From: Candidatus Woesearchaeota archaeon
Lineage (GTDB): Archaea; Nanobdellota; Nanobdellia; Woesearchaeales; GW2011-AR4
NCBI GenBank assembly: GCA_016185945.1
Contig: JACPMR010000002.1
Span: 10,999-74,998, forward strand
Length of the DNA stretch: 64,000 nt
Direction: 5' to 3'
The number at the start of each line of letters is the position of its first letter. Position 1 is the first letter of the stretch. Below, in pieces: positions 1 through 9,983 of the stretch. The notes under the pieces were generated by a model that searched no databases, was not told where the DNA came from, and saw only the letters and a list, made by a program, of their open reading frames with translations. A program made the translations under genes and the position numbers.

Positions 1-1455
1 TTCCAGCTCTTTTTCAGTTTCAACGACATTTTTTATTTTGTACAAAAACCACTTGTCGATTTTTGTCAACTCATAAATTTTATCGATTGATATGCCTCTT
101 TTGATTGCCTCGACAATCACAAGCAGCCTTTTGTCTGTTGGAGTTTTCAGTTCTTTCTCGATGTCATTAAAAGTCAGATTGTTTCCAACAAGCCCATGAA
201 GATTTATGCCAAGCATTCTTATTGCCTTTTGAACTGTTTCCTCAAATTTCCTGCCGATTGCCATTACTTCCCCAACGCTTTTCATCTCAGAGCCAATCTC
301 AAAGCTCACATTCCTGAACTTCTGCAAGTCCCATCTCGGGATTTTGACGACAATATAGTCCAATGCCGGCTCGAAGCAGCTTTTTGTCACTTTTGTTATT
401 TGATTTTCTAATTCAATTAAAGAATATCCCAAAGCTAATTTTGCAGCTACAAATGCCAGCGGATAGCCTGTTGCCTTTGATGCAAGCGCAGAGCTTCTTG
501 ATAATCTTGCATTTACTTCTATGATTCTGTAATCCTCAGAGTAAGGGTCAAGGGCAAACTGTATATTGCATTCCCCGACAATTCCAAGATGCCTTATGAC
601 TTTGATTGAAATTTCCCTTAATTTATGGTATTCATTGTTTGTCAGAGTTTGAGATGGAGCAACAACAATGCTTTCTCCTGTATGGATTCCCATGGGATCA
701 AAGTTTTCCATGTTGCAGACGGTGATGCAGTTGTCGTAAGCATCCCTTACAACTTCATACTCAATTTCTTTCCAGCCGCCAAGGTATTTTTCAACAAGAA
801 CTTGAGAAGAGTAAGCAAAAGCGCGCTTTGCTTTGTTTATTAATTCTTCTTCATTCAATGCAGTTCCAGAGCCCTGCCCGCCTAAAGCGTAAGCAACCCT
901 TAGCATTATCGGATATTTTAGTTTTCTGGCAACATCAACTGCTTCTTCGACGCTTGTAACTGCTTCACTTTCAGGCACTTTAAGGTTTATTTCATTCAAT
1001 TTTTTGACAAATAATTCCCTATCCTCAGTATTTTTTATTGCATCAATCTGTGTGCCTAAAACTTTTACGTTGCATTTTTCAAAAATACCATTGTCTGCCA
1101 GTGCAACTCCGCAGTTCAATAACTTTTTCAACAAAATATGGGGTAACAGGAAGAAAATAGATTTTGTCTGCCATGCCTTCGCTAGATTGAATAGTAGCTA
1201 TATTTGGATTTATCAAAATACTCTTTATCCCTTCTTCCTTTAGTGCTTTTAGGCATTGAGAACCGGAGTAGTCGAATTGGCGTCTTTAGCAGATCTCGCC
1301 GGCCTCTCCGATTTTGACTTTGCCTAGATTAAATGCCTAATCTAATGTGCACCGCTGCCTAAGACAAGCACTTTTCTGGGCTTTTTTATCACATCGTTTA
1401 CCTCCGTTCTTAACTTATCAAATCTTTGTAAAAGGGCATAGTCTTTCTTTATCAT
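1..1455 (-). CDS. carB: carbamoyl-phosphate synthase large subunit (CarB), N-terminal ~480 codons; runs off window at position 1; 5' region frame-disrupted (see findings)
   Basis: ATG at 1455 overlaps carA stop (ATGA). N-terminus [36 protein letters not shown]. Then FDYSGSQ...[16 protein letters not shown]. One continuous frame from ~1118 to 1 with motifs [42 protein letters not shown]. In-frame stops in all frames between ~1262-1345 and a frame change near 1090-1118. Confidence 0.75.
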
Positions 1456-2528
1456 TTCCTCCTCTTCACAAACTCATCAAACAGAAACTCTGTATCATAA
1501 GGGCCGGGAGTGCTTTCTGGATGAAATTGACAAGAAAAAAAAGGCTTTGTATTATGCCTTATTCCTTCATTCGTGCCGTCGTTTGCATTAATAAAAAATT
1601 CCTGCCACTCATTGCTTAAAGATTCCATGTCAACAGCAAATCCATGATTTTGGGTTGTGATAAAACATCTTTTTGTCCCAACAAGTGTACAAGGTTGGTT
1701 TTGCGAGCGATGCCCATACTTTAGTTTGTAAGTATCGCCACCTGCTGCCAGCGCCATCAATTGGTTGCCAAGGCAGATTCCAAATGTTGGGATATTTTGA
1801 TTTAGGGCTTTGCTCACATTCTCTATTGTTTTCTTGCACATTTTAGGGTCGCCAGGACCATTGGAAATCAATAATCCATCAAAATCTAGTTTCAGAAAAT
1901 CATAGTCATATGGGACCCTCACAACAGTCAAATCTCTCTTAATCAAATTTCTGATTATGTTATTTTTAATGCCACAGTCAACAACAACGATTTTTTTGTT
2001 TACATTTTTTTCATTATAAACAATTGGCTTTTCTAGTGTGACTTCTTTTACAATATCTATTACGTTTGGATCATAAAAGTTAATATCCTCATTTTCAAAA
2101 ACTATTTTTCCAAGCATTGCGCCTTTCTCCCTTAATGTTTTTGTTAATTTTCTTGTATCAATGCCATAAATTGCTGGAATATTTTCTTCTTTTAGCCAGT
2201 CAGCCAAACTTTTTTTTGCATTCCAATGTGAATACTCAAAAGAATAGTCGGAAATAACTAATGCCTGAACTTGAATTTTATCGGATTCAAAATTCTTTAA
2301 CAGGCTATCCTCTTTTTCTTTTCCAGGCACGCCATAATTCCCGATTAATGGATAAGTTAAAGCAAGAATCTGCCCTTTATAGCTTGGGTCGGTCAATGAC
2401 TCAGGATAGCCGACCATTCCTGTGTTAAAAACTGCTTCGCCTGAAACAGAATGCTCCGCTCCAAAAGAAAAACCATTGAACTCGTCGCCGTTTTCTAGAA
2501 TAAGCTTGACTTCTTTAATGCCGTCCAT
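1452..2528 (-). CDS. carA: carbamoyl-phosphate synthase small subunit (glutamine amidotransferase)
   Basis: 358 aa. CarA N-domain followed by a class I GATase region (GICLGNQLMALAAGG, FHPES). Confidence 0.9.
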   Translation of the reverse strand: MDGIKEVKLILENGDEFNGFSFGAEHSVSGEAVFNTGMVGYPESLTDPSYKGQILALTYPLIGNYGVPGKEKEDSLLKNFESDKIQVQALVISDYSFEYSHWNAKKSLADWLKEENIPAIYGIDTRKLTKTLREKGAMLGKIVFENEDINFYDPNVIDIVKEVTLEKPIVYNEKNVNKKIVVVDCGIKNNIIRNLIKRDLTVVRVPYDYDFLKLDFDGLLISNGPGDPKMCKKTIENVSKALNQNIPTFGICLGNQLMALAAGGDTYKLKYGHRSQNQPCTLVGTKRCFITTQNHGFAVDMESLSNEWQEFFINANDGTNEGIRHNTKPFFSCQFHPESTPGPYDTEFLFDEFVKRRK

Positions 2529-2688
2529 TAAAAAAGGGAGATAGTATGAAGTTGTTAATAAAGGTTGCGGTTTATCTTTTTTAAGGTGCCAAAATGAGTG
2601 AAAAATTATATAGAAATTAGTGTTATTATTACTTTTTAGTAAATAATTAAAAAAGATTTATAAATTGATTATGCTAAATCATAGGTAA

Positions 2689-3615
2689 ATGACAAGTCAA
2701 ACTACTTTAAATCGGAGATATACTACTGATAGATTATATGATATAGTTTTGGCTGAAGCCAAAAATTTCCTAGTCCTTCCTGACGACGTGGCAAAATTGT
2801 GCTTGCAGGACGAACAAAGAACCAAAGCTTTGATGGATATAATATCTGAAACAACGTTGCCTGATACATTAGGAGCAGATATTGGCGCAGGTTCCGGAAT
2901 ACTAGGCTTTGCTTTTCTTAATGCGGGTGGTAGGTATTTGTTCAGTGTTGAAAAATCACCTAGATGGGCTGATTTTATTCGAAAACTCGCTTATCAATTA
3001 GGGTTTCATGAACAAATGAAAGTTTATACCGCCGATGCAACAACTGTTAGGCTGGAACCACACCCTCCAATTGATTATGTTATTGCCGAACTTGTCAGTA
3101 CTGGCTTAAGCCGTGAGCCATTGGTACAGGCTGTGAAAAATATAAGGCAGTATGCTTCTCCTAATGCAATCTATTTACCTTTATGGGTTATTTCAGAAAT
3201 TGTAGTTCATACCGGACGAAGGAGCGGAAATGGTTCAAAACCTCTTACAAAACCAAAAATATATGACGTGGTTCATATGCCTTCTGTATCGGCAACAGGA
3301 GTGGATTGCGAAGTCGAATTAGAAGCAATTAATGAAGGAAAGCCAGAGCATGTTGCTTTAGATACAACTCTTATAGGCCCAAATGGATTGCCAATAGGAA
3401 AATTTGATACACTCTGTGGCTCTTTTTCAGTTCCCTTAAGCTTCGAAGATCCTTCAGCTTCTTTGCTTGTAAAAATGGCAGGTCCATTTACTACTCCAAA
3501 GGTCTCGATTGGGCAAAGGATTATTGTTCGTATTGATTATCAATATGGTGAAGTAATAGATTGTGAATATGGCAGGCCACAAAAAACATTTCGATGGTCT
3601 TGTAGAAAGTTGTAA
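2689..3615 (+). CDS. class I SAM-dependent methyltransferase with PRMT-like architecture (MTase fold plus C-terminal beta domain)
   Basis: Motif I DIGAGSGILGFAF, post-I FSVEKSP, motif II IDYVIAELVSTGL. 308 aa, similar length and order to protein arginine methyltransferases. Opposite strand to the flanking car/arg genes. Confidence 0.5.
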   Translation: MTSQTTLNRRYTTDRLYDIVLAEAKNFLVLPDDVAKLCLQDEQRTKALMDIISETTLPDTLGADIGAGSGILGFAFLNAGGRYLFSVEKSPRWADFIRKLAYQLGFHEQMKVYTADATTVRLEPHPPIDYVIAELVSTGLSREPLVQAVKNIRQYASPNAIYLPLWVISEIVVHTGRRSGNGSKPLTKPKIYDVVHMPSVSATGVDCEVELEAINEGKPEHVALDTTLIGPNGLPIGKFDTLCGSFSVPLSFEDPSASLLVKMAGPFTTPKVSIGQRIIVRIDYQYGEVIDCEYGRPQKTFRWSCRKL

Positions 3616-3648
3616 CTAATAAAGTGCTTCTATAATTTTTAAGAAATT

Positions 3649-4983
3649 TTATTTGAAATTTGAAGGTTTTTTCTGCATATAATTGACGGCTTTTTCCGCT
3701 TCTCCAAAAGTTAATCCTATCCAATATCCGGCATACAATTCTCCATCCACACCAATAAATTTCTGGCTTCCATCTGCTATTTTTCGATATAATATTTCGG
3801 TCGCATCTCTGGAGAATTTTGTTCTCCAAAAAACTTTTGGCCCTATGCGATGTATTATATCAGTGGCTAAGCCATTTCCCCTGTAGCCATTATCTGTAAC
3901 AAGTATATCAAGATAAGGTATTCCATCCACAGCATTGAGCATTACTATACCTAATCCTTTGGCGTGTCTTTCTAAGTAAACAAATTTTTGCCCATTTACA
4001 AAATAATCATCCACAAGTTTTTGCCCAAAATTTCTTTCTGTTATATCTTTGATAACTCTTTGATTTACATTTGCTAAAGATATAGGTTCATTAATAACAT
4101 AACCCAATCTCACCAAAGTTCCCTTACCTTTATGTGTAAATAATTCAAAAGGTATATCACCTGGCTTTGTTATTTGTACACTTTTATCATCACCATTAAT
4201 CCTCATTTCCAAGCTTCTTTTAGCTTCTATTACTTTCTTTAGAGCTCCCTGAGTTACAATTCCTTGCTCTACCAATCTTTCAAAATCTCTTCTTAGTACA
4301 ATTTCATCGATTGTACGTCCTATTGCAACATCTGGATTGTCAAGAATCCCATGTGTTGAAGTCAACAAAAGGTATTTAACTGGGTCAATCGCTTCTACTA
4401 ATTTTGCGCCTACTGTATCTCCGTTAATATTAAACAGCTTAACCCCGCCAGCTGAAACTCCAATAGGAGAAAGAACAGGTATCATGGCTTGTGAAGCCAA
4501 CTGCAGTAATGGTTGTGGATTAATAAGGACAATTTCTCCATTATGGGCGCCATAGCCAGAGTCCTGTTTATCTTTTGTGATTATAACCTTTGCTTCGTAT
4601 TCTACACCAGCCACAGGAGTTCCTTTTGATGCTATAGCTTTTACCAGCCTTTGTCTCGTTTCAGAAGCAACTTCTAAAACATGTGGAAATACCTCCTCAT
4701 CAGTATATCTATCTTCCTCGGGGGTGAAAACTGTTGCTATCCCTTTTGCCTCCAATCTCTTTGTTAAAGTTTTGCCCCATCCATGAACAACAATCGGAAT
4801 TAAGCCCAGTTTTGACAGAAACGCCAAATCATTAGCTATGCTTTCGAGGTCATTTTCTAAACACTCTCCACCTATTTTCAGAACTGCGAATCTCCCAGGT
4901 TGTGCCTGTCTGAAGAGACTCCAGTAATAAAATGCTTCTTCATGTTTTATTCTTCCCAGCAAATCTACTACATTATCAATCAT
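3649..4983 (-). CDS. argA: amino-acid N-acetyltransferase (N-acetylglutamate synthase, two-domain bacterial type: amino-acid kinase domain plus GNAT)
   Basis: AAK-fold motifs VLKIGGE, VVHGWG. C-terminal GNAT motif YRGNGLATD. 444 aa. Confidence 0.7.
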   Translation of the reverse strand: MIDNVVDLLGRIKHEEAFYYWSLFRQAQPGRFAVLKIGGECLENDLESIANDLAFLSKLGLIPIVVHGWGKTLTKRLEAKGIATVFTPEEDRYTDEEVFPHVLEVASETRQRLVKAIASKGTPVAGVEYEAKVIITKDKQDSGYGAHNGEIVLINPQPLLQLASQAMIPVLSPIGVSAGGVKLFNINGDTVGAKLVEAIDPVKYLLLTSTHGILDNPDVAIGRTIDEIVLRRDFERLVEQGIVTQGALKKVIEAKRSLEMRINGDDKSVQITKPGDIPFELFTHKGKGTLVRLGYVINEPISLANVNQRVIKDITERNFGQKLVDDYFVNGQKFVYLERHAKGLGIVMLNAVDGIPYLDILVTDNGYRGNGLATDIIHRIGPKVFWRTKFSRDATEILYRKIADGSQKFIGVDGELYAGYWIGLTFGEAEKAVNYMQKKPSNFK

Positions 4984-6331
4984 TTTTATTTACTAATGAT
5001 TTAGCTTTAGAACTAAATTTTTCAATTTCAGTGTCAATTTTCTTTTGCAATAATTTAATTTTCTCCTTTATCTTCTCCAACCCCAAATTTCCAGTTGCTC
5101 CAATATGTTTTTTTGATTGAATATTTTTTATTGGGTTGATTTTTGGCAATTTGTTTATGTTCTTTGCAGTTTGCTTATAGGCATCTCTAAACGGAATTCC
5201 TTTTTTTACTAATTCATAAGCATGCTCTGTGGCAAATAAGTCTGGTGTGCATGCTGAAATACACTTGTCTTTGTTGACTTGGATTTTCTCAATGACTATT
5301 TTGAATATATTTAATGCTGAAAGTGCAATTTCAAAACTTTCCATAAGCGGCTCTTTTGTTAGCTGCAAATCCCTATTGTAGCCAGACTGCAATTTTGATA
5401 TGATGCTCTTTACTAAATATAAGTTTGAATCAACTTTTGCTGCTTTTGCGCGTGTTAATTCAAATACGTCAGGATTTTTCTTTTGAGGCATTATAGAACT
5501 GCCTGTGCAGAATTCATCTGGAAGCTTGAAAAATCCAAATCCATCCATACTGAATAATATTAAATCATTCGATAATCTTGCCAAATCATTCATTACATTG
5601 CTTAATGCGAAGATCGTAACAGATTCGAATTTGCCTCTACTATTTTGAACGTAAAGAACATTATTCTGAACTTTTTCAAACCCGAGCAAGTCTGCAACTA
5701 ATTGCCTATCTACATTCAAAGACAAACCATAACCTGCTCCGCTGCCTAATGGAGATTGATTATTGAGGTTATAGGCTTCTTCCAATAATCCCGAATCATC
5801 AATTAACGATTCTGCAAAGCTTCCAAAATACAATCCAACGGAGCTTGGCATTGCCTTTCTTGAATGAGTGTAACCTGGCATAGGAATATCTTTGTATTTT
5901 TCTGCAGCATTAACTAGAACAGATGCTAATTCTAAAGTCAGTTTTTGAACTTCAAGCAGTTTTTCTTTTGAATATAATCTTATATCAACTAGAACTTGGT
6001 CGTTTCTTGAGCGGGCAGTATGGATTTTCTTGCCCAAATCTCCCAATTTTTTTATAAGGTAGTTTTCTATTGATGTATGAACATCTTCATCTTCAAGTTT
6101 TATCTCAAATTGATTTTTTTGATGCAATTCCATAATTTCAATCAATGCTTTTTTCAATTTTTGAAGTTCATTTTTTGATAGAATTCCGATTTTTTCCAGC
6201 ATTATTGCATGCGCAATGCTTCCATAAACATCATATTTCACTAGATTTTTGTCTATTAAAAAATCATTTCCAACAGTGAATTTTTCAATTTCTTTGTTTA
6301 AGCTGTAGTCCTTTTGCCAGAGTTTTGACAT
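4976..6331 (-). CDS. argH: argininosuccinate lyase
   Basis: Fumarase/ASL signature GSSIMPQKKNPD. 451 aa. Confidence 0.9.
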   Translation of the reverse strand: MSKLWQKDYSLNKEIEKFTVGNDFLIDKNLVKYDVYGSIAHAIMLEKIGILSKNELQKLKKALIEIMELHQKNQFEIKLEDEDVHTSIENYLIKKLGDLGKKIHTARSRNDQVLVDIRLYSKEKLLEVQKLTLELASVLVNAAEKYKDIPMPGYTHSRKAMPSSVGLYFGSFAESLIDDSGLLEEAYNLNNQSPLGSGAGYGLSLNVDRQLVADLLGFEKVQNNVLYVQNSRGKFESVTIFALSNVMNDLARLSNDLILFSMDGFGFFKLPDEFCTGSSIMPQKKNPDVFELTRAKAAKVDSNLYLVKSIISKLQSGYNRDLQLTKEPLMESFEIALSALNIFKIVIEKIQVNKDKCISACTPDLFATEHAYELVKKGIPFRDAYKQTAKNINKLPKINPIKNIQSKKHIGATGNLGLEKIKEKIKLLQKKIDTEIEKFSSKAKSLVNKND

Positions 6332-6336
6332 TTTAT

Positions 6337-7176
6337 TTAATGTACAAGTTCTGCCACCCTCGAAAGTATCTCAACATTTGTGGCTATAATTCTTGCTTGA
6401 TCAGCTAGATTATATCTGCCATCAGCAATAAATACAGCGGGGACTTCAAGTGCAAAGTTGACTGTGCGATGCTCTTTTGCAAACTCTAGTATAGTGAAGT
6501 CATTATGCGCTGGTGCATATACATGTTTTCGTATTTCTTGAAAACCACTTGCTATTGGTACACATCCCTCTCGAATAGGATTCCCATTTGCTCTGATAAC
6601 TTCGATTAACAATCTTTCTATTTCTCTTTGCAGTTCTGATTCAATAGGTGCCGTAATTATAATATAAGGTTCGCCTACACAATTATGAATGTCTATTACA
6701 ACTAACGAGTTAGCTACTATATGTTCAATCTCTCCAATAAAAGATGGTTTTTGAACATGACTTCCGTAGCCCCAGTGACCCCACTTAGGATATAAATTAC
6801 CTATATTTTCGCTTTCTAAAAATTGATAAAACATAAAGTTTAACAAATTTTGGTCGCCATCACTTAATGCTCTAGTTTTTCCAACTTTTTTGTACATAGT
6901 ATCAAACATGTCAGCGTTAACCACAGGCGCAGCACTCATTGGAGCTCCGCTTGCAAGTGTCTCCAATACCGACTGATAAGTACCAAAAATTTCATTTGCG
7001 TGATGCATTGCAGTAACACATAGTCTTCCTCCAGCCCTAAATAAGTAAACTCTTTGCTCCTCTCCTTTTCCAGCGTCAATTAATTTTCCTTTTCCAGAGA
7101 CTGCAAGTCTTTTCAAAGGCTCGACAACAAATCTTTGATAATAACTCATTTTAATCAGCTTTTTTATGCGCTTCAT
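6337..7176 (-). CDS. succinylglutamate desuccinylase/aspartoacylase (AstE/AspA) family zinc deacylase-like protein
   Basis: VTAMHHANEIFG resembles the GxHGNE zinc-binding motif of the AstE/AspA (M14-like) family. 279 aa. Sits between argH and argG with an overlapping stop/start at 7176. Confidence 0.4.
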   Translation of the reverse strand: MKRIKKLIKMSYYQRFVVEPLKRLAVSGKGKLIDAGKGEEQRVYLFRAGGRLCVTAMHHANEIFGTYQSVLETLASGAPMSAAPVVNADMFDTMYKKVGKTRALSDGDQNLLNFMFYQFLESENIGNLYPKWGHWGYGSHVQKPSFIGEIEHIVANSLVVIDIHNCVGEPYIIITAPIESELQREIERLLIEVIRANGNPIREGCVPIASGFQEIRKHVYAPAHNDFTILEFAKEHRTVNFALEVPAVFIADGRYNLADQARIIATNVEILSRVAELVH

Positions 7177-8396
7177 TATCTCTTATTCCTCAGAGAACTA
7201 GCCTTTAATCTCAAAGCATTTAATCTGATAAAACCTAAAGCATCTTTTTGGTCGTAGCCGCCTAAAACATCCATGCTGCTTAAGTCCTGATTGTATAATG
7301 ATTCATTTGATTCTCTGCCTATAACCATGCAGTTTCCTTTGTACAAAGACAAATGGACTGTTCCACTTACATGCTCTTGGCTTTTGTCGAATGCTGCTCT
7401 CAAAAAGTCCATCTCAGGAGAGTACCAAAATCCATAGTAGATTAATTCTGCAAACTTTGGCATTAGCATTTCACGCAGATGCATCACTTCTCTGTCTAAT
7501 GTAATGCCTTCTATATCGCGATGCGCGATGTGCAATATTGTCCCTGCCGGCGTCTCATAAACTCCCCTTGACTTCAGGCCCACAAAGCGGTTTTCAACCA
7601 TGTCAATCCTGCCAATGCCGTTTTCGCCGCCAATTTTGTTCAAATATTGGAATAACTCCAATGGCTTTGCCTTTATAGTGCCATCATTTTTGTTTGTCAC
7701 CTTTACCGGATTTCCACTCTTAAATTCAATCTCTATTATTGTTTCCTGATCGGGCGCATCTTTCGGGCTTTTGGTCATCTCAAACATTTCTTCGCTTGGC
7801 GTTAAATTCGGGTCTTCCAAAATGCCTGCTTCATAACTGATATGCATTAAGTTTGCATCTGTGCTGTAAGGAGCTTCTTTAGTTGCTTTCACTGGAATTC
7901 CGTTTTTATTGGCAAATTCTATCATATCAGAGCGCCCTTTGAATTGTGACAAGAATTCTGCATCCTTCCAAGGCGCAATAATTTTTATTTTTGGGTTTAA
8001 TTTCATATAAGTAAGCTCAAATCTGACTTGGTCATTGCCTTTGCCAGTAGCGCCATGGCTTACGTATTCAGCATTTTCTTTTTCTGCAATTTCTATTTGC
8101 TTTTTTGCAATCAATGGTCTTGCCAAAGAAGTTCCCATTAGGTAGCGTCCTTCATAAACGGCATTTGCCCTTATTGCTGGAAATATGAAATCTGTGACAA
8201 ACTCTTCTTTCACATCTTCAATGTAAACTTTTGAAGCGCCTAATTTCAATGCCTTTTCCTTTGCTGCATCAAAATCTTCATTTTGCCCCAAATCAGCTAC
8301 AAATGCAACTACATCAAAGCCTTTATTAATCAACCATTTCAGGATTACAGATGTGTCCAAGCCCCCACTATAGGCTAAAACTACCTTTTGCTTCAT
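7176..8396 (-). CDS. argG: argininosuccinate synthase
   Basis: N-terminal PP-loop [10 protein letters not shown]. 406 aa. Confidence 0.92.
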
Positions 8397-8783
8397 TTAT
8401 CTATTAACTCCCCACTTGCATTGTCCAAATCCTCTGCCAGCAAATTATCAAAAAAATCTCCAGTTTTTGCAGAGTGAATTTTCGCGTTTTGTTTCATCAA
8501 ACATTACAGCATTAAATCTATTTTTAAATATGATGCCCGAACCAAAACAAAAATAAACAAAAATGTCCAAAACAAAACATTTAAATATTTGAATTGATTT
8601 TTATATTAAATGTGTAGTTTCGACACAATCAAAATATCAAAAACAAAATCAACAAACACGAGAGCGACTTTTGTATGCACAGCATGATAAAAGTGAACCG
8701 CTTGCGACAGTTCGCTTATATATTTACAATGGATAGGCGAAGGGGTTAAATGCCCCTGAGCAGTATCTTTTGCCGAAGGCAGT

Positions 8784-9455
8784 TTGAAAATATTAAAAAA
8801 ATTTAAAGTCTCCCTTAAAATGCCAAACATAACAAAATTAACAGAACAATACATTTTAGAACATCCTTCCATTAAAGATTGCCTGAAGAATGGCTTGATT
8901 AATTATTCCTCTTTATCACGACAGATTACCAGCGAATTGAATTTGAACTTAAAGAAAAACTTTGACGCGATATTGATAGCATGCCGCAGATTTAAATCCA
9001 AATTAAGGAAGGGGGAAGTTCATGAAAAAGAGATTTTGAAAATATTGAAGGACAGCAAGATTGAGATTAAGAACAAAATAGTGGCTGTGGTGCTGGAAAA
9101 GGATATTTACTTTGGGCATTTAATAAGCCTGGAAAAGGAAATCAAAAAGCAAAATGAAATTTTCAGAGTGATTGAGGGAGTTTCCGCAATAACAATAATA
9201 ACAACCGAGGAATTTTTAGATTCAATCAAAAAATATTTTAGGAACAAGATAATCCTGGAGAACAAAAATCTTGCGGAAATAACAATAAAAAGCCCAAAGG
9301 AAATTGAAACAACTCCTGGAACTTACGCTTATATGTCCTCATTATTTGGAGAAAACAACATAAATATAGTTGAAAGCTTAAGCTGCTGGACTGACACGAT
9401 TTTCCTTGTAAAAGAGGAGGATGCCGGGAAAGTGATTGGCTTGCTGAGATTTTGA
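8784..9455 (+). CDS. ACT-domain-containing putative amino-acid-binding regulatory protein (start more likely the internal Met near 8820)
   Basis: Two ACT-like beta-alpha-beta-beta-alpha-beta segments after an N-terminal helical region. Divergent from the arg genes. Confidence 0.4.
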   Translation: MKILKKFKVSLKMPNITKLTEQYILEHPSIKDCLKNGLINYSSLSRQITSELNLNLKKNFDAILIACRRFKSKLRKGEVHEKEILKILKDSKIEIKNKIVAVVLEKDIYFGHLISLEKEIKKQNEIFRVIEGVSAITIITTEEFLDSIKKYFRNKIILENKNLAEITIKSPKEIETTPGTYAYMSSLFGENNINIVESLSCWTDTIFLVKEEDAGKVIGLLRF

Positions 9456-9500: not shown

Positions 9501-9983
9501 ATGCCAGTCCAAATAGGGGAATTATCTGATATAGTCGGACAAGATATTGCTAGTCATTTAGTATGTCAGGGTATATGTTCTGGCAGTTATTACGATTTTC
9601 TATTTTACATTCGGGAAGTTGATGACAAATTAATGCTTATAGGCGAAGCTTTGGTTCAAATAGACAGAACTAGAAAAGTAATAAGCTGGGAAAATTTTTA
9701 TCCGTTTCAACTGTTAAGGGGGTACGAAGGAAAAAAAGGTTGGGGAACATTGGCGCATGTATTAATTCTCCAGATGCTAATTGAAAATGAAGGCAATTTG
9801 ACTGGTTATATTGTAGAACATTCTAACAGCTTGGAAATTCAACGTATTGGACAGCTGGAAGCTATTGGTATTATACAAAAGGATGGTGTTTTTGCTGAAG
9901 AATTTTCATCCTACTACAGAAAATCAATTGACTATTTAAGAAGTAAGGGAATTAATTTTAAGCCAATCCAACTTGCACCCTAA
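9501..9983 (+). CDS. hypothetical protein (possible GNAT-like fold)
   Basis: 160-aa ORF. RGYEGKKGWGTLA resembles GNAT motif A, weakly. Confidence 0.3.
   Translation: MPVQIGELSDIVGQDIASHLVCQGICSGSYYDFLFYIREVDDKLMLIGEALVQIDRTRKVISWENFYPFQLLRGYEGKKGWGTLAHVLILQMLIENEGNLTGYIVEHSNSLEIQRIGQLEAIGIIQKDGVFAEEFSSYYRKSIDYLRSKGINFKPIQLAP

Follow-up and report, generated by a model that had tools for sequence, protein, structure and literature searches.

A PRMT-fold methyltransferase without dimerisation arm or THW loop beside the arginine genes of a Woesearchaeota archaeon

A stretch of 64,000 nucleotides from Candidatus Woesearchaeota archaeon (assembly GCA_016185945.1, contig JACPMR010000002.1, positions 10,999 to 74,998 of the forward strand; the whole stretch is called the window, and positions follow its numbering unless another locus is named) carries at 2689..3615 (+) a gene for a 308-amino-acid (aa), S-adenosylmethionine (SAM)-dependent methyltransferase with the fold of the protein arginine methyltransferases (PRMTs). 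The protein, HYX02_00100, is a member of a large, uncharacterised prokaryotic PRMT-like family of about 280 aa and lies in a fast-evolving DPANN subclade of that family, not in the eukaryotic PRMT lineage. It is a minimal variant of the fold and not a canonical PRMT: both the dimerisation arm and the THW loop are missing. As its substrate, arginine side chains of one or several cellular proteins are slightly favoured (probability about 0.45).

The gene has an ATG start (the interval includes the stop codon) and encodes the three motifs that had been picked out in an earlier, sequence-only reading of this DNA, DIGAGSGILGF, FSVEKSP and IDYVIAELVSTGL, at residues 64-74, 85-91 and 128-140. The identical protein was found on six public contigs as 'hypothetical protein HYX02_00100 [Candidatus Woesearchaeota archaeon]' and has full-length homologues, so a chance open reading frame (ORF) can be dismissed. 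No Pfam or NCBIfam model matched the methyltransferase above its cut-off; generic matches stayed below threshold (Methyltransf_12, 24.8 bits; PrmA, 12.5 bits at a cut-off of 22). When the sequence was searched against the PDB, 44 of 44 matches at E<0.1 were eukaryotic PRMTs, headed by TbPRMT7 (1.3e-6) and followed by PRMT6, CARM1 and PRMT1/2/8, and the alignments started upstream of motif I, within the PRMT-specific helix. The predicted model was confident and compact. The C-terminal stretch of about 150 aa, in which the sequence-only reading had recognised no motif and which it had noted to be the place of the beta-barrel in PRMTs, forms a beta-rich domain that superposes on this barrel and packs on the Rossmann fold as in PRMTs. 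The earlier PRMT-like call was thereby upheld in sequence and fold; best matches to RsmC- or PrmA-type families without a barrel were not obtained.

Two other identities were considered and rejected. Membership of PrmA, the L11 methyltransferase, would entail a passing score with the PrmA model and an N-terminal L11-binding domain, neither of which was found, and the best sequence and structure matches were not to RNA methyltransferases of the RsmC, RsmD, Trm5, KsgA or Erm types.

Prokaryotic relatives scored 57-164 bits with the single sequence, compared with 20-31 bits for the significant PRMT matches in the PDB. A word-index search with this sequence alone returned three relatives, and an exhaustive HMMER search with a three-sequence profile returned 86 representative clusters at E<1e-30, mostly of 270-300 aa and matched over their full length including the barrel (profile span, for example, 38-297). 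A word-index search for the family yielded 278 clusters at E<=1e-10; at least three loci were recovered by scanning genome contigs with a generic GxGxG pattern, and three by scanning metagenomes with the pattern AEL..T. Named members come from Woesearchaeota and Micrarchaeota among the archaea and from Saccharimonadales, Blastocatellia, Nocardioides and Thermomicrobiales among the bacteria. No member with a tested function was found in the literature. The CDD superfamily model COG4076 also matches plant PRMTs (PMC11165092), and the family is probably COG4076, judging from JGI labels together with that paper.

Residue equivalences were obtained by aligning the family profile with human PRMT1 by using hhalign (99.1% probability, E 1e-18); the reference sequence was identical to PDB 6nt2_A, and rat PRMT1 numbering was used. 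Conservation was counted in 60 diverse homologues for the family and in 23 members for the archaeal subclade. The helices that precede motif I (residues 13-55, 2725..2853 (+), from the secondary structure of the model) contain an aromatic position, Y17, that is W/Y/F in 55 of the 60 homologues. They include the CLQDEQRT helix (residues 38-45, 2800..2823 (+)), equivalent to PRMT1 M48-L-K-D51-E-V-R54-T, so that C38, D41, R44 and T45 stand opposite M48, D51, R54 and T55. C38 is conserved in 56, D41 in 59 and R44 in 58 homologues, and R44 is a predicted ligand of the SAM carboxylate. Motif I, the SAM-binding glycine loop (DIGAGSGIL, residues 64-72, 2878..2904 (+)), aligned to PRMT1 LDVGSGTGIL and is nearly invariant at its glycines (G66 60/60, G68 59/60, G70 57/60). 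The acidic residue after motif I, E88 (2950..2952 (+)), corresponds to PRMT1 E100 in the hhalign alignment; the position holds E in 52 and D in 8 homologues and is predicted to bind the ribose hydroxyls. The double-E loop (E134-LVSTGLSR-E143, 3088..3117 (+)) aligned to PRMT1 SEWMGYCLFYE. Its two glutamates, equivalent to E144 and E153 and conserved in 59/60 and 60/60, would form the predicted guanidinium clamp. The protein thus has the pre-motif-I helix of PRMTs, a Rossmann domain with GxGxG and an acidic post-I residue, and the double-E loop. Judged from these alignments, the putative SAM-binding and guanidinium-binding apparatus of a minimal PRMT-fold enzyme is under strong constraint, which argues for an active guanidino-N methyltransferase; we infer the activity from this conservation.

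Two further PRMT features are missing. The C-terminal barrel (about residues 156-300, 3154..3588 (+), from the predicted model) is devoid of the dimerisation arm: in the hhalign alignment about 31 residues are missing across from the arm of PRMT1, and residues 176-189 at this position form a 14-residue, helix-free loop in the model. Given the missing arm, the protein would be monomeric or otherwise differently assembled. The THW loop is lacking as well, and no T-H-W was found anywhere in the sequence. The profile alignments ended before this region, and T241-L242-C243 (3409..3417 (+)) was placed there by spacing, with no aligned match. These residues belong to an [S/T]-L-C motif that is conserved in the archaeal subclade (L242 21/23, C243 22/23) and probably stands in place of the THW loop; in the wider family, position 243 is C in 29 and N in 25 sequences.

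The sequence-only reading had held PRMT-type enzymes to be essentially eukaryotic and had raised a eukaryote-like origin, for which phylogeny was to be consulted. The former view proved overstated in light of the large prokaryotic family and of a bacterial radiation ancestral to eukaryotic PRMTs that is already in the literature (PMC3417536). The latter was contradicted: human PRMT1 scored 97 bits against a hidden Markov model (HMM) of the non-archaeal family members and 52 bits against an HMM of the archaeal subclade, and in a neighbour-joining tree the archaeal sequences formed one clade, with a mean distance to PRMT1 larger than that of the rest of the family. Lacking any special closeness to eukaryotic PRMTs, the clade has no bearing on eukaryogenesis. 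Searches of the literature on archaeal, DPANN or prokaryotic PRMTs returned no paper that describes an archaeal or DPANN PRMT-like clade. Between genomes whose flanking carA, carB, ACT and RibA proteins are 73-88% identical, the methyltransferase reaches only 35-44%, an unusually fast divergence for a protein with invariant catalytic residues. A recent horizontal insertion was considered too and was ruled out, since both the GC content and the GC content at third codon positions (GC3) resemble those of the neighbours; the GC3 of the gene is 0.25, equal to that of the adjoining arginine genes. No second copy of the methyltransferase was found within the window, and an Rfam search of its 64 kb gave no match.

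The methyltransferase gene is divergent from carA, from which it is separated by a 160-bp intergenic region. By inspection, a TATA-like box, TTTATAAA, preceded by a purine-rich stretch, was located at 2657..2664 (+), 25-32 nt upstream of the ATG; it suggests that the gene has its own archaeal promoter and a leader that may be short or absent.

We propose that HYX02_00100 is an active SAM-dependent N-methyltransferase built from an N-terminal lid helix, the Rossmann fold and the C-terminal beta-barrel. SAM would be held by the G66-x-G68-x-G70 loop, with E88 at the ribose and R44 at the carboxylate, and a guanidinium group would be clamped by E134 and E143 and then methylated on an omega nitrogen. 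Without the arm and the THW loop, the protein has conserved Cys38 and Leu242-Cys243 instead. The gene would be transcribed alone, on the strand opposite to the arginine genes, and the arginine-gene neighbourhood would be an inherited gene order shared by a few related Woesearchaeota, with no role in the pathway.

The substrate was assessed from gene contexts, of which about 12 independent ones were recovered for the archaeal subclade. In the window the methyltransferase gene is flanked upstream by carA, for the small subunit of carbamoyl-phosphate synthase (1452..2528 (-); Pfam CPSase_sm_chain 1e-50, GATase 2e-55), and downstream, across a 33-bp gap, by a convergent argA/B-like gene for a 444-aa protein with AA_kinase and NAT domains (3649..4983 (-); Pfam, NCBIfam). 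The sequence-only reading had named these flanks carA and argA; the first name agrees with Pfam, and the second is only approximate, as the acetylglutamate kinase models remained below cut-off. The two closest family members are P0004 (44% identical) and P0005 (39-41% identical), and linkage to arginine genes was found only in the window and at these two. At the P0004 locus (L006), carB, a LAGLIDADG gene, a NUDIX gene and carA precede the methyltransferase gene, which is divergent from carA and convergent with a gene for a 243-aa protein that matches the NAT domain of the window's two-domain protein. At the P0005 locus the methyltransferase gene is convergent with argC, argD and argB.

About nine other contexts in the subclade are free of arginine genes. 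In four genomes the methyltransferase gene follows PheRS, with an optional Fic gene in between, and converges on PAC2, with Nop10, eIF2a, S27e and histone genes beyond. A ribosomal context places it after L15e and ahead of codirectional L7Ae, S28e, L24e, NDK, EF2 and EF1a. It also follows a glucokinase gene and is convergent with genes for a PUA methyltransferase and aIF5B; it is divergent from AspRS and codirectional with Dus; and at the P0153 locus it is convergent with glnA, with an AsnC regulator gene adjoining. Its neighbours at a Micrarchaeote locus are unannotated. No neighbour is conserved at all family loci, only two syntenic groups emerged, and in none of the recovered contexts does the methyltransferase gene share a strand with arginine genes. 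At the P0002 locus (L001) a gene for an ACT-domain protein precedes the methyltransferase gene, which is convergent with ribA; compared with the window, identity is 73% for the ACT protein and 87% for RibA, but only 35% for the methyltransferase. The ACT-ribA slot of the window, occupied by the methyltransferase gene in L001, is filled by a 160-aa ORF (9501..9983 (+)) without a family match. It was considered as a methyltransferase paralogue or remnant, and this idea was rejected since no similarity to methyltransferases was found. A further woesearchaeal member, at 7503..8882 (+) of locus L009, has 459 aa, resembles P0040 and carries a 165-aa N-terminal extension without a detectable family match.

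Elsewhere in the family, the PRMT-like domain is found in fusions. P0200, P0244 and P0052, all metagenomic, are fused to a pyruvoyl-dependent arginine decarboxylase (PvlArgDC); downstream of one of these lie genes for an LPG_synthase_C-type protein and a GNAT acyltransferase, which suggests an uncharacterised pathway to an arginine- or agmatine-derived small molecule. P0058, P0127 and P0138 are fused to NNMT/PNMT/TEMT-type methyltransferases, and the remaining partners are SET (P0069), EAL (P0043) and CxxCxxCC (P0083) domains and a TrmB-type winged helix-turn-helix (25.7 bits in P0150, weaker in P0141 and P0148). From this variety, the family has both small-molecule and macromolecule branches.

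An arginine side chain in protein is favoured because most contexts are of a housekeeping kind and because the lineage has a bias towards peptides and proteins; moreover, no operon with arginine genes is formed, and the family is retained in DPANN lineages on whose contigs no such genes lie nearby. Several points weigh against this preference. The methyltransferase of the window and its two nearest relatives (39-44% identity) adjoin arginine-pathway genes in at least two arrangements, a fourth relative adjoins glnA, and branches of the family are fused to the pyruvoyl arginine decarboxylase and to small-molecule methyltransferases of the NNMT/PNMT type. Eukaryotic PRMTs depend on dimerising through an arm, which this protein does not have. 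No ORF rich in RGG/GAR was found in the 64-kb window, a small part of the genome. Housekeeping neighbours carry little weight, since translation genes abound in DPANN genomes.

The serious rival, an idea that goes back to the sequence-only reading, is that free L-arginine or a small guanidino compound, such as agmatine or argininosuccinate, is methylated in functional connection with the carbamoyl-phosphate/arginine cluster, for example to N-omega-methylarginine as a regulator, sink or building block in the manner of SznE/StzE; we hold this to be possible, if doubtful. All three closest members are flanked by arginine genes, in different combinations, and the window's protein and P0005 were paired in 73% of bootstraps. 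The clade that unites both with P0004, and with it all the arginine linkage, was recovered in only 32%. The window and the P0004 locus, moreover, are close relatives (carA 78%, carB 88% identical) and in both carA is divergent from the methyltransferase gene, so the shared carA arrangement is probably a single event by descent; the roughly nine contexts free of arginine genes count in the same direction. P0153, convergent with glnA beside an AsnC regulator, speaks for the rival, as do the three PvlArgDC fusions, with LPG_synthase_C and GNAT neighbours, and the three NNMT/PNMT fusions, but the fusions come from remote branches that score about 130 bits with the profile. A small substrate could also suit an enzyme that has lost the arm and the THW loop. 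A precedent is SznE/StzE (SznE, UniProt A0A411EW25), characterised as an arginine-guanidino methyltransferase that acts on free arginine (PMC11705231). Finally, the gene lies on the strand opposite to the arginine genes, and a shared operator was sought in vain: only AT-rich, low-complexity repeats were common to the carA-methyltransferase and argG-ACT intergenic regions.

A narrower proposal is that an arm-less, monomeric mini-PRMT methylates free arginine, a pathway intermediate or a pathway enzyme in the arginine-linked branch formed by the window's protein, P0004 and P0005; this we regard as unlikely.

Methylation of a substrate without a guanidino group (RNA, lysine, an N-terminus or a peptide natural product), with the PRMT fold as a scaffold only, is improbable. 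Annotation labels differ by pipeline: family members are called 'predicted RNA methylase', a legacy label, 'protein arginine N-methyltransferase 1' or 'L11 methyltransferase', and PGAP names some of them '50S ribosomal protein L11 methyltransferase'; the RNA methylase and L11 labels lean towards such a substrate. Weak matches to PrmA, Trm5 and RrnaAD models are frequent across the family, and these cover the Rossmann domain only. Genes with roles in translation or RNA metabolism are numerous among the neighbours.

A decaying or non-catalytic protein, for instance an arginine- or SAM-binding sensor, might be read from the fast divergence (35-44% identity against 73-88% in flanking proteins) and from the apparently disrupted carB nearby, but is very improbable, as the ORF is intact in every relative, even very distant homologues keep all SAM-binding and double-E residues, and the predicted model is confident and compact.

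The arginine genes of the window show several further features. Arginine biosynthesis is uncommon among DPANN archaea. The two-domain AA_kinase-NAT gene is a divergent form of the first step of the arginine pathway; its best NCBIfam models are those of the bifunctional-type acetylglutamate kinase, all below cut-off, with 219.9 bits for the best against a cut-off of 426 and a score far below the cut-off of every acetylglutamate kinase or synthase model. Its 243-aa counterpart in L006 matches the NAT part only. The remainder of the cluster, argH, an unannotated gene and argG, occupies 4976..8396 (-) (ORF list, Pfam, NCBIfam). The unannotated gene (279 aa, 6337..7176 (-)) is tightly packed with both argH and argG; it gave no Pfam, NCBIfam or PDB sequence match and carries an HxxE-like motif, 'MHHANEIFG'. 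It might, speculatively, provide a missing step of the arginine pathway, such as a deacylase. Divergent from argG lies an ORF for a 223-aa protein (8784..9455 (+)) with a C-terminal ACT_7 domain and a weak N-terminal match of the helix-turn-helix type (DUF7523). The 73%-identical ACT orthologue in L001 (3..530) is located 22 bp upstream of the methyltransferase homologue on the same strand, and the ACT_7 protein could be an amino-acid-sensing regulator tied to both argG and the methyltransferase homologue.

Downstream of carA, carB (1..1450 (-)) is 88% identical to carB of L006 (region compared, 1048..5600) over 372 residues. Its 5' part is broken, first by a stop and then by a change of frame. 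An in-frame, stop-containing insertion of 18 nt interrupts the conserved GQAGE-FDYSG motif, and an out-of-frame deletion of 53 nt relative to L006 removes KENPDGVMLSFGGQTA, which in L006 is flanked by ATTGA direct repeats. In L006, too, the GQAGE/FDYSG site of carB is interrupted, by an insertion of about 20 nt that includes a stop, and the LAGLIDADG and NUDIX genes lie between carB and carA at that locus. Pseudogenisation, an assembly error or small, intron-like inserts could account for the disrupted gene of the window.

PRMTs are central eukaryotic regulators, and to our knowledge their prokaryotic roots are known only from the comparative genomics of bacterial secondary-metabolite enzymes. 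HYX02_00100 documents a coherent archaeal (DPANN) clade in which the PRMT fold is cut to its catalytic minimum, with the arm and the THW loop gone and all residues predicted to bind SAM and guanidinium retained. If active, it would show which PRMT features catalysis can spare and would offer a compact model enzyme that is easy to work with. That its nearest relatives recurrently lie beside arginine-synthesis genes provides a concrete and cheap hypothesis, free versus protein arginine. Should the narrower proposal on the arginine-linked branch be true, SAM-dependent guanidino methylation would take part in controlling how carbamoyl phosphate and arginine are made, and the PRMT fold would have a metabolic function in archaea that is so far undescribed.

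Among known systems, the eukaryotic PRMTs, especially PRMT7 (T. brucei 4m36/5eku, mouse 4c4a/6ogn) and PRMT6, CARM1 and PRMT1, are the best and the sole two-domain structural matches of HYX02_00100. They have in common with it the two-domain architecture, the SAM ligands (R44=R54, E88=E100 and GxGxG) and the double-E loop. Identity is 14-18%, however; about 31 residues of the arm are deleted, Cys replaces PRMT1 Met48, the N-terminal targeting domains are absent, and the THW loop is unrecognisable, with [S/T]-L-C roughly at its place. None of PRMT1-9 is an orthologue of the protein, which is farther from PRMT1 than are the non-archaeal prokaryotic homologues. With the prokaryotic PRMT-like family it has full-length homology and the elements CLxDxxRT, GxGxG, AEL..TGL..E, P164 and Y284..G287 in common. 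Compared with the family, the DPANN subclade has an additional helical segment near the N-terminus (about residues 18-33) and Cys instead of Asn at position 243, and its loop at the arm site is shorter still; where the protein has loop 176-189, the alignment shows a longer stretch in bacterial P0003 (...ERMYGF..., ...LRHEWPFYERD...). With PrmA, the ribosomal protein L11 lysine methyltransferase, the class I Rossmann methyltransferase domain is shared.

PRMT-like methylases of bacterial peptides and secondary metabolites were described by Aravind et al., as cited in PMC3417536. They are prokaryotic, belong to the PRMT lineage, as SznE/StzE probably does, and like it have guanidino groups as targets. 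The present family resembles such methylases in the PvlArgDC, LPG_synthase_C and GNAT contexts or fusions of some members. HYX02_00100, in contrast, is archaeal and standalone and lies among genes of primary metabolism and housekeeping, with no biosynthetic gene cluster. The prokaryotic family was already catalogued, if uncharacterised; what is new is an archaeal PRMT-fold enzyme without arm and THW loop.
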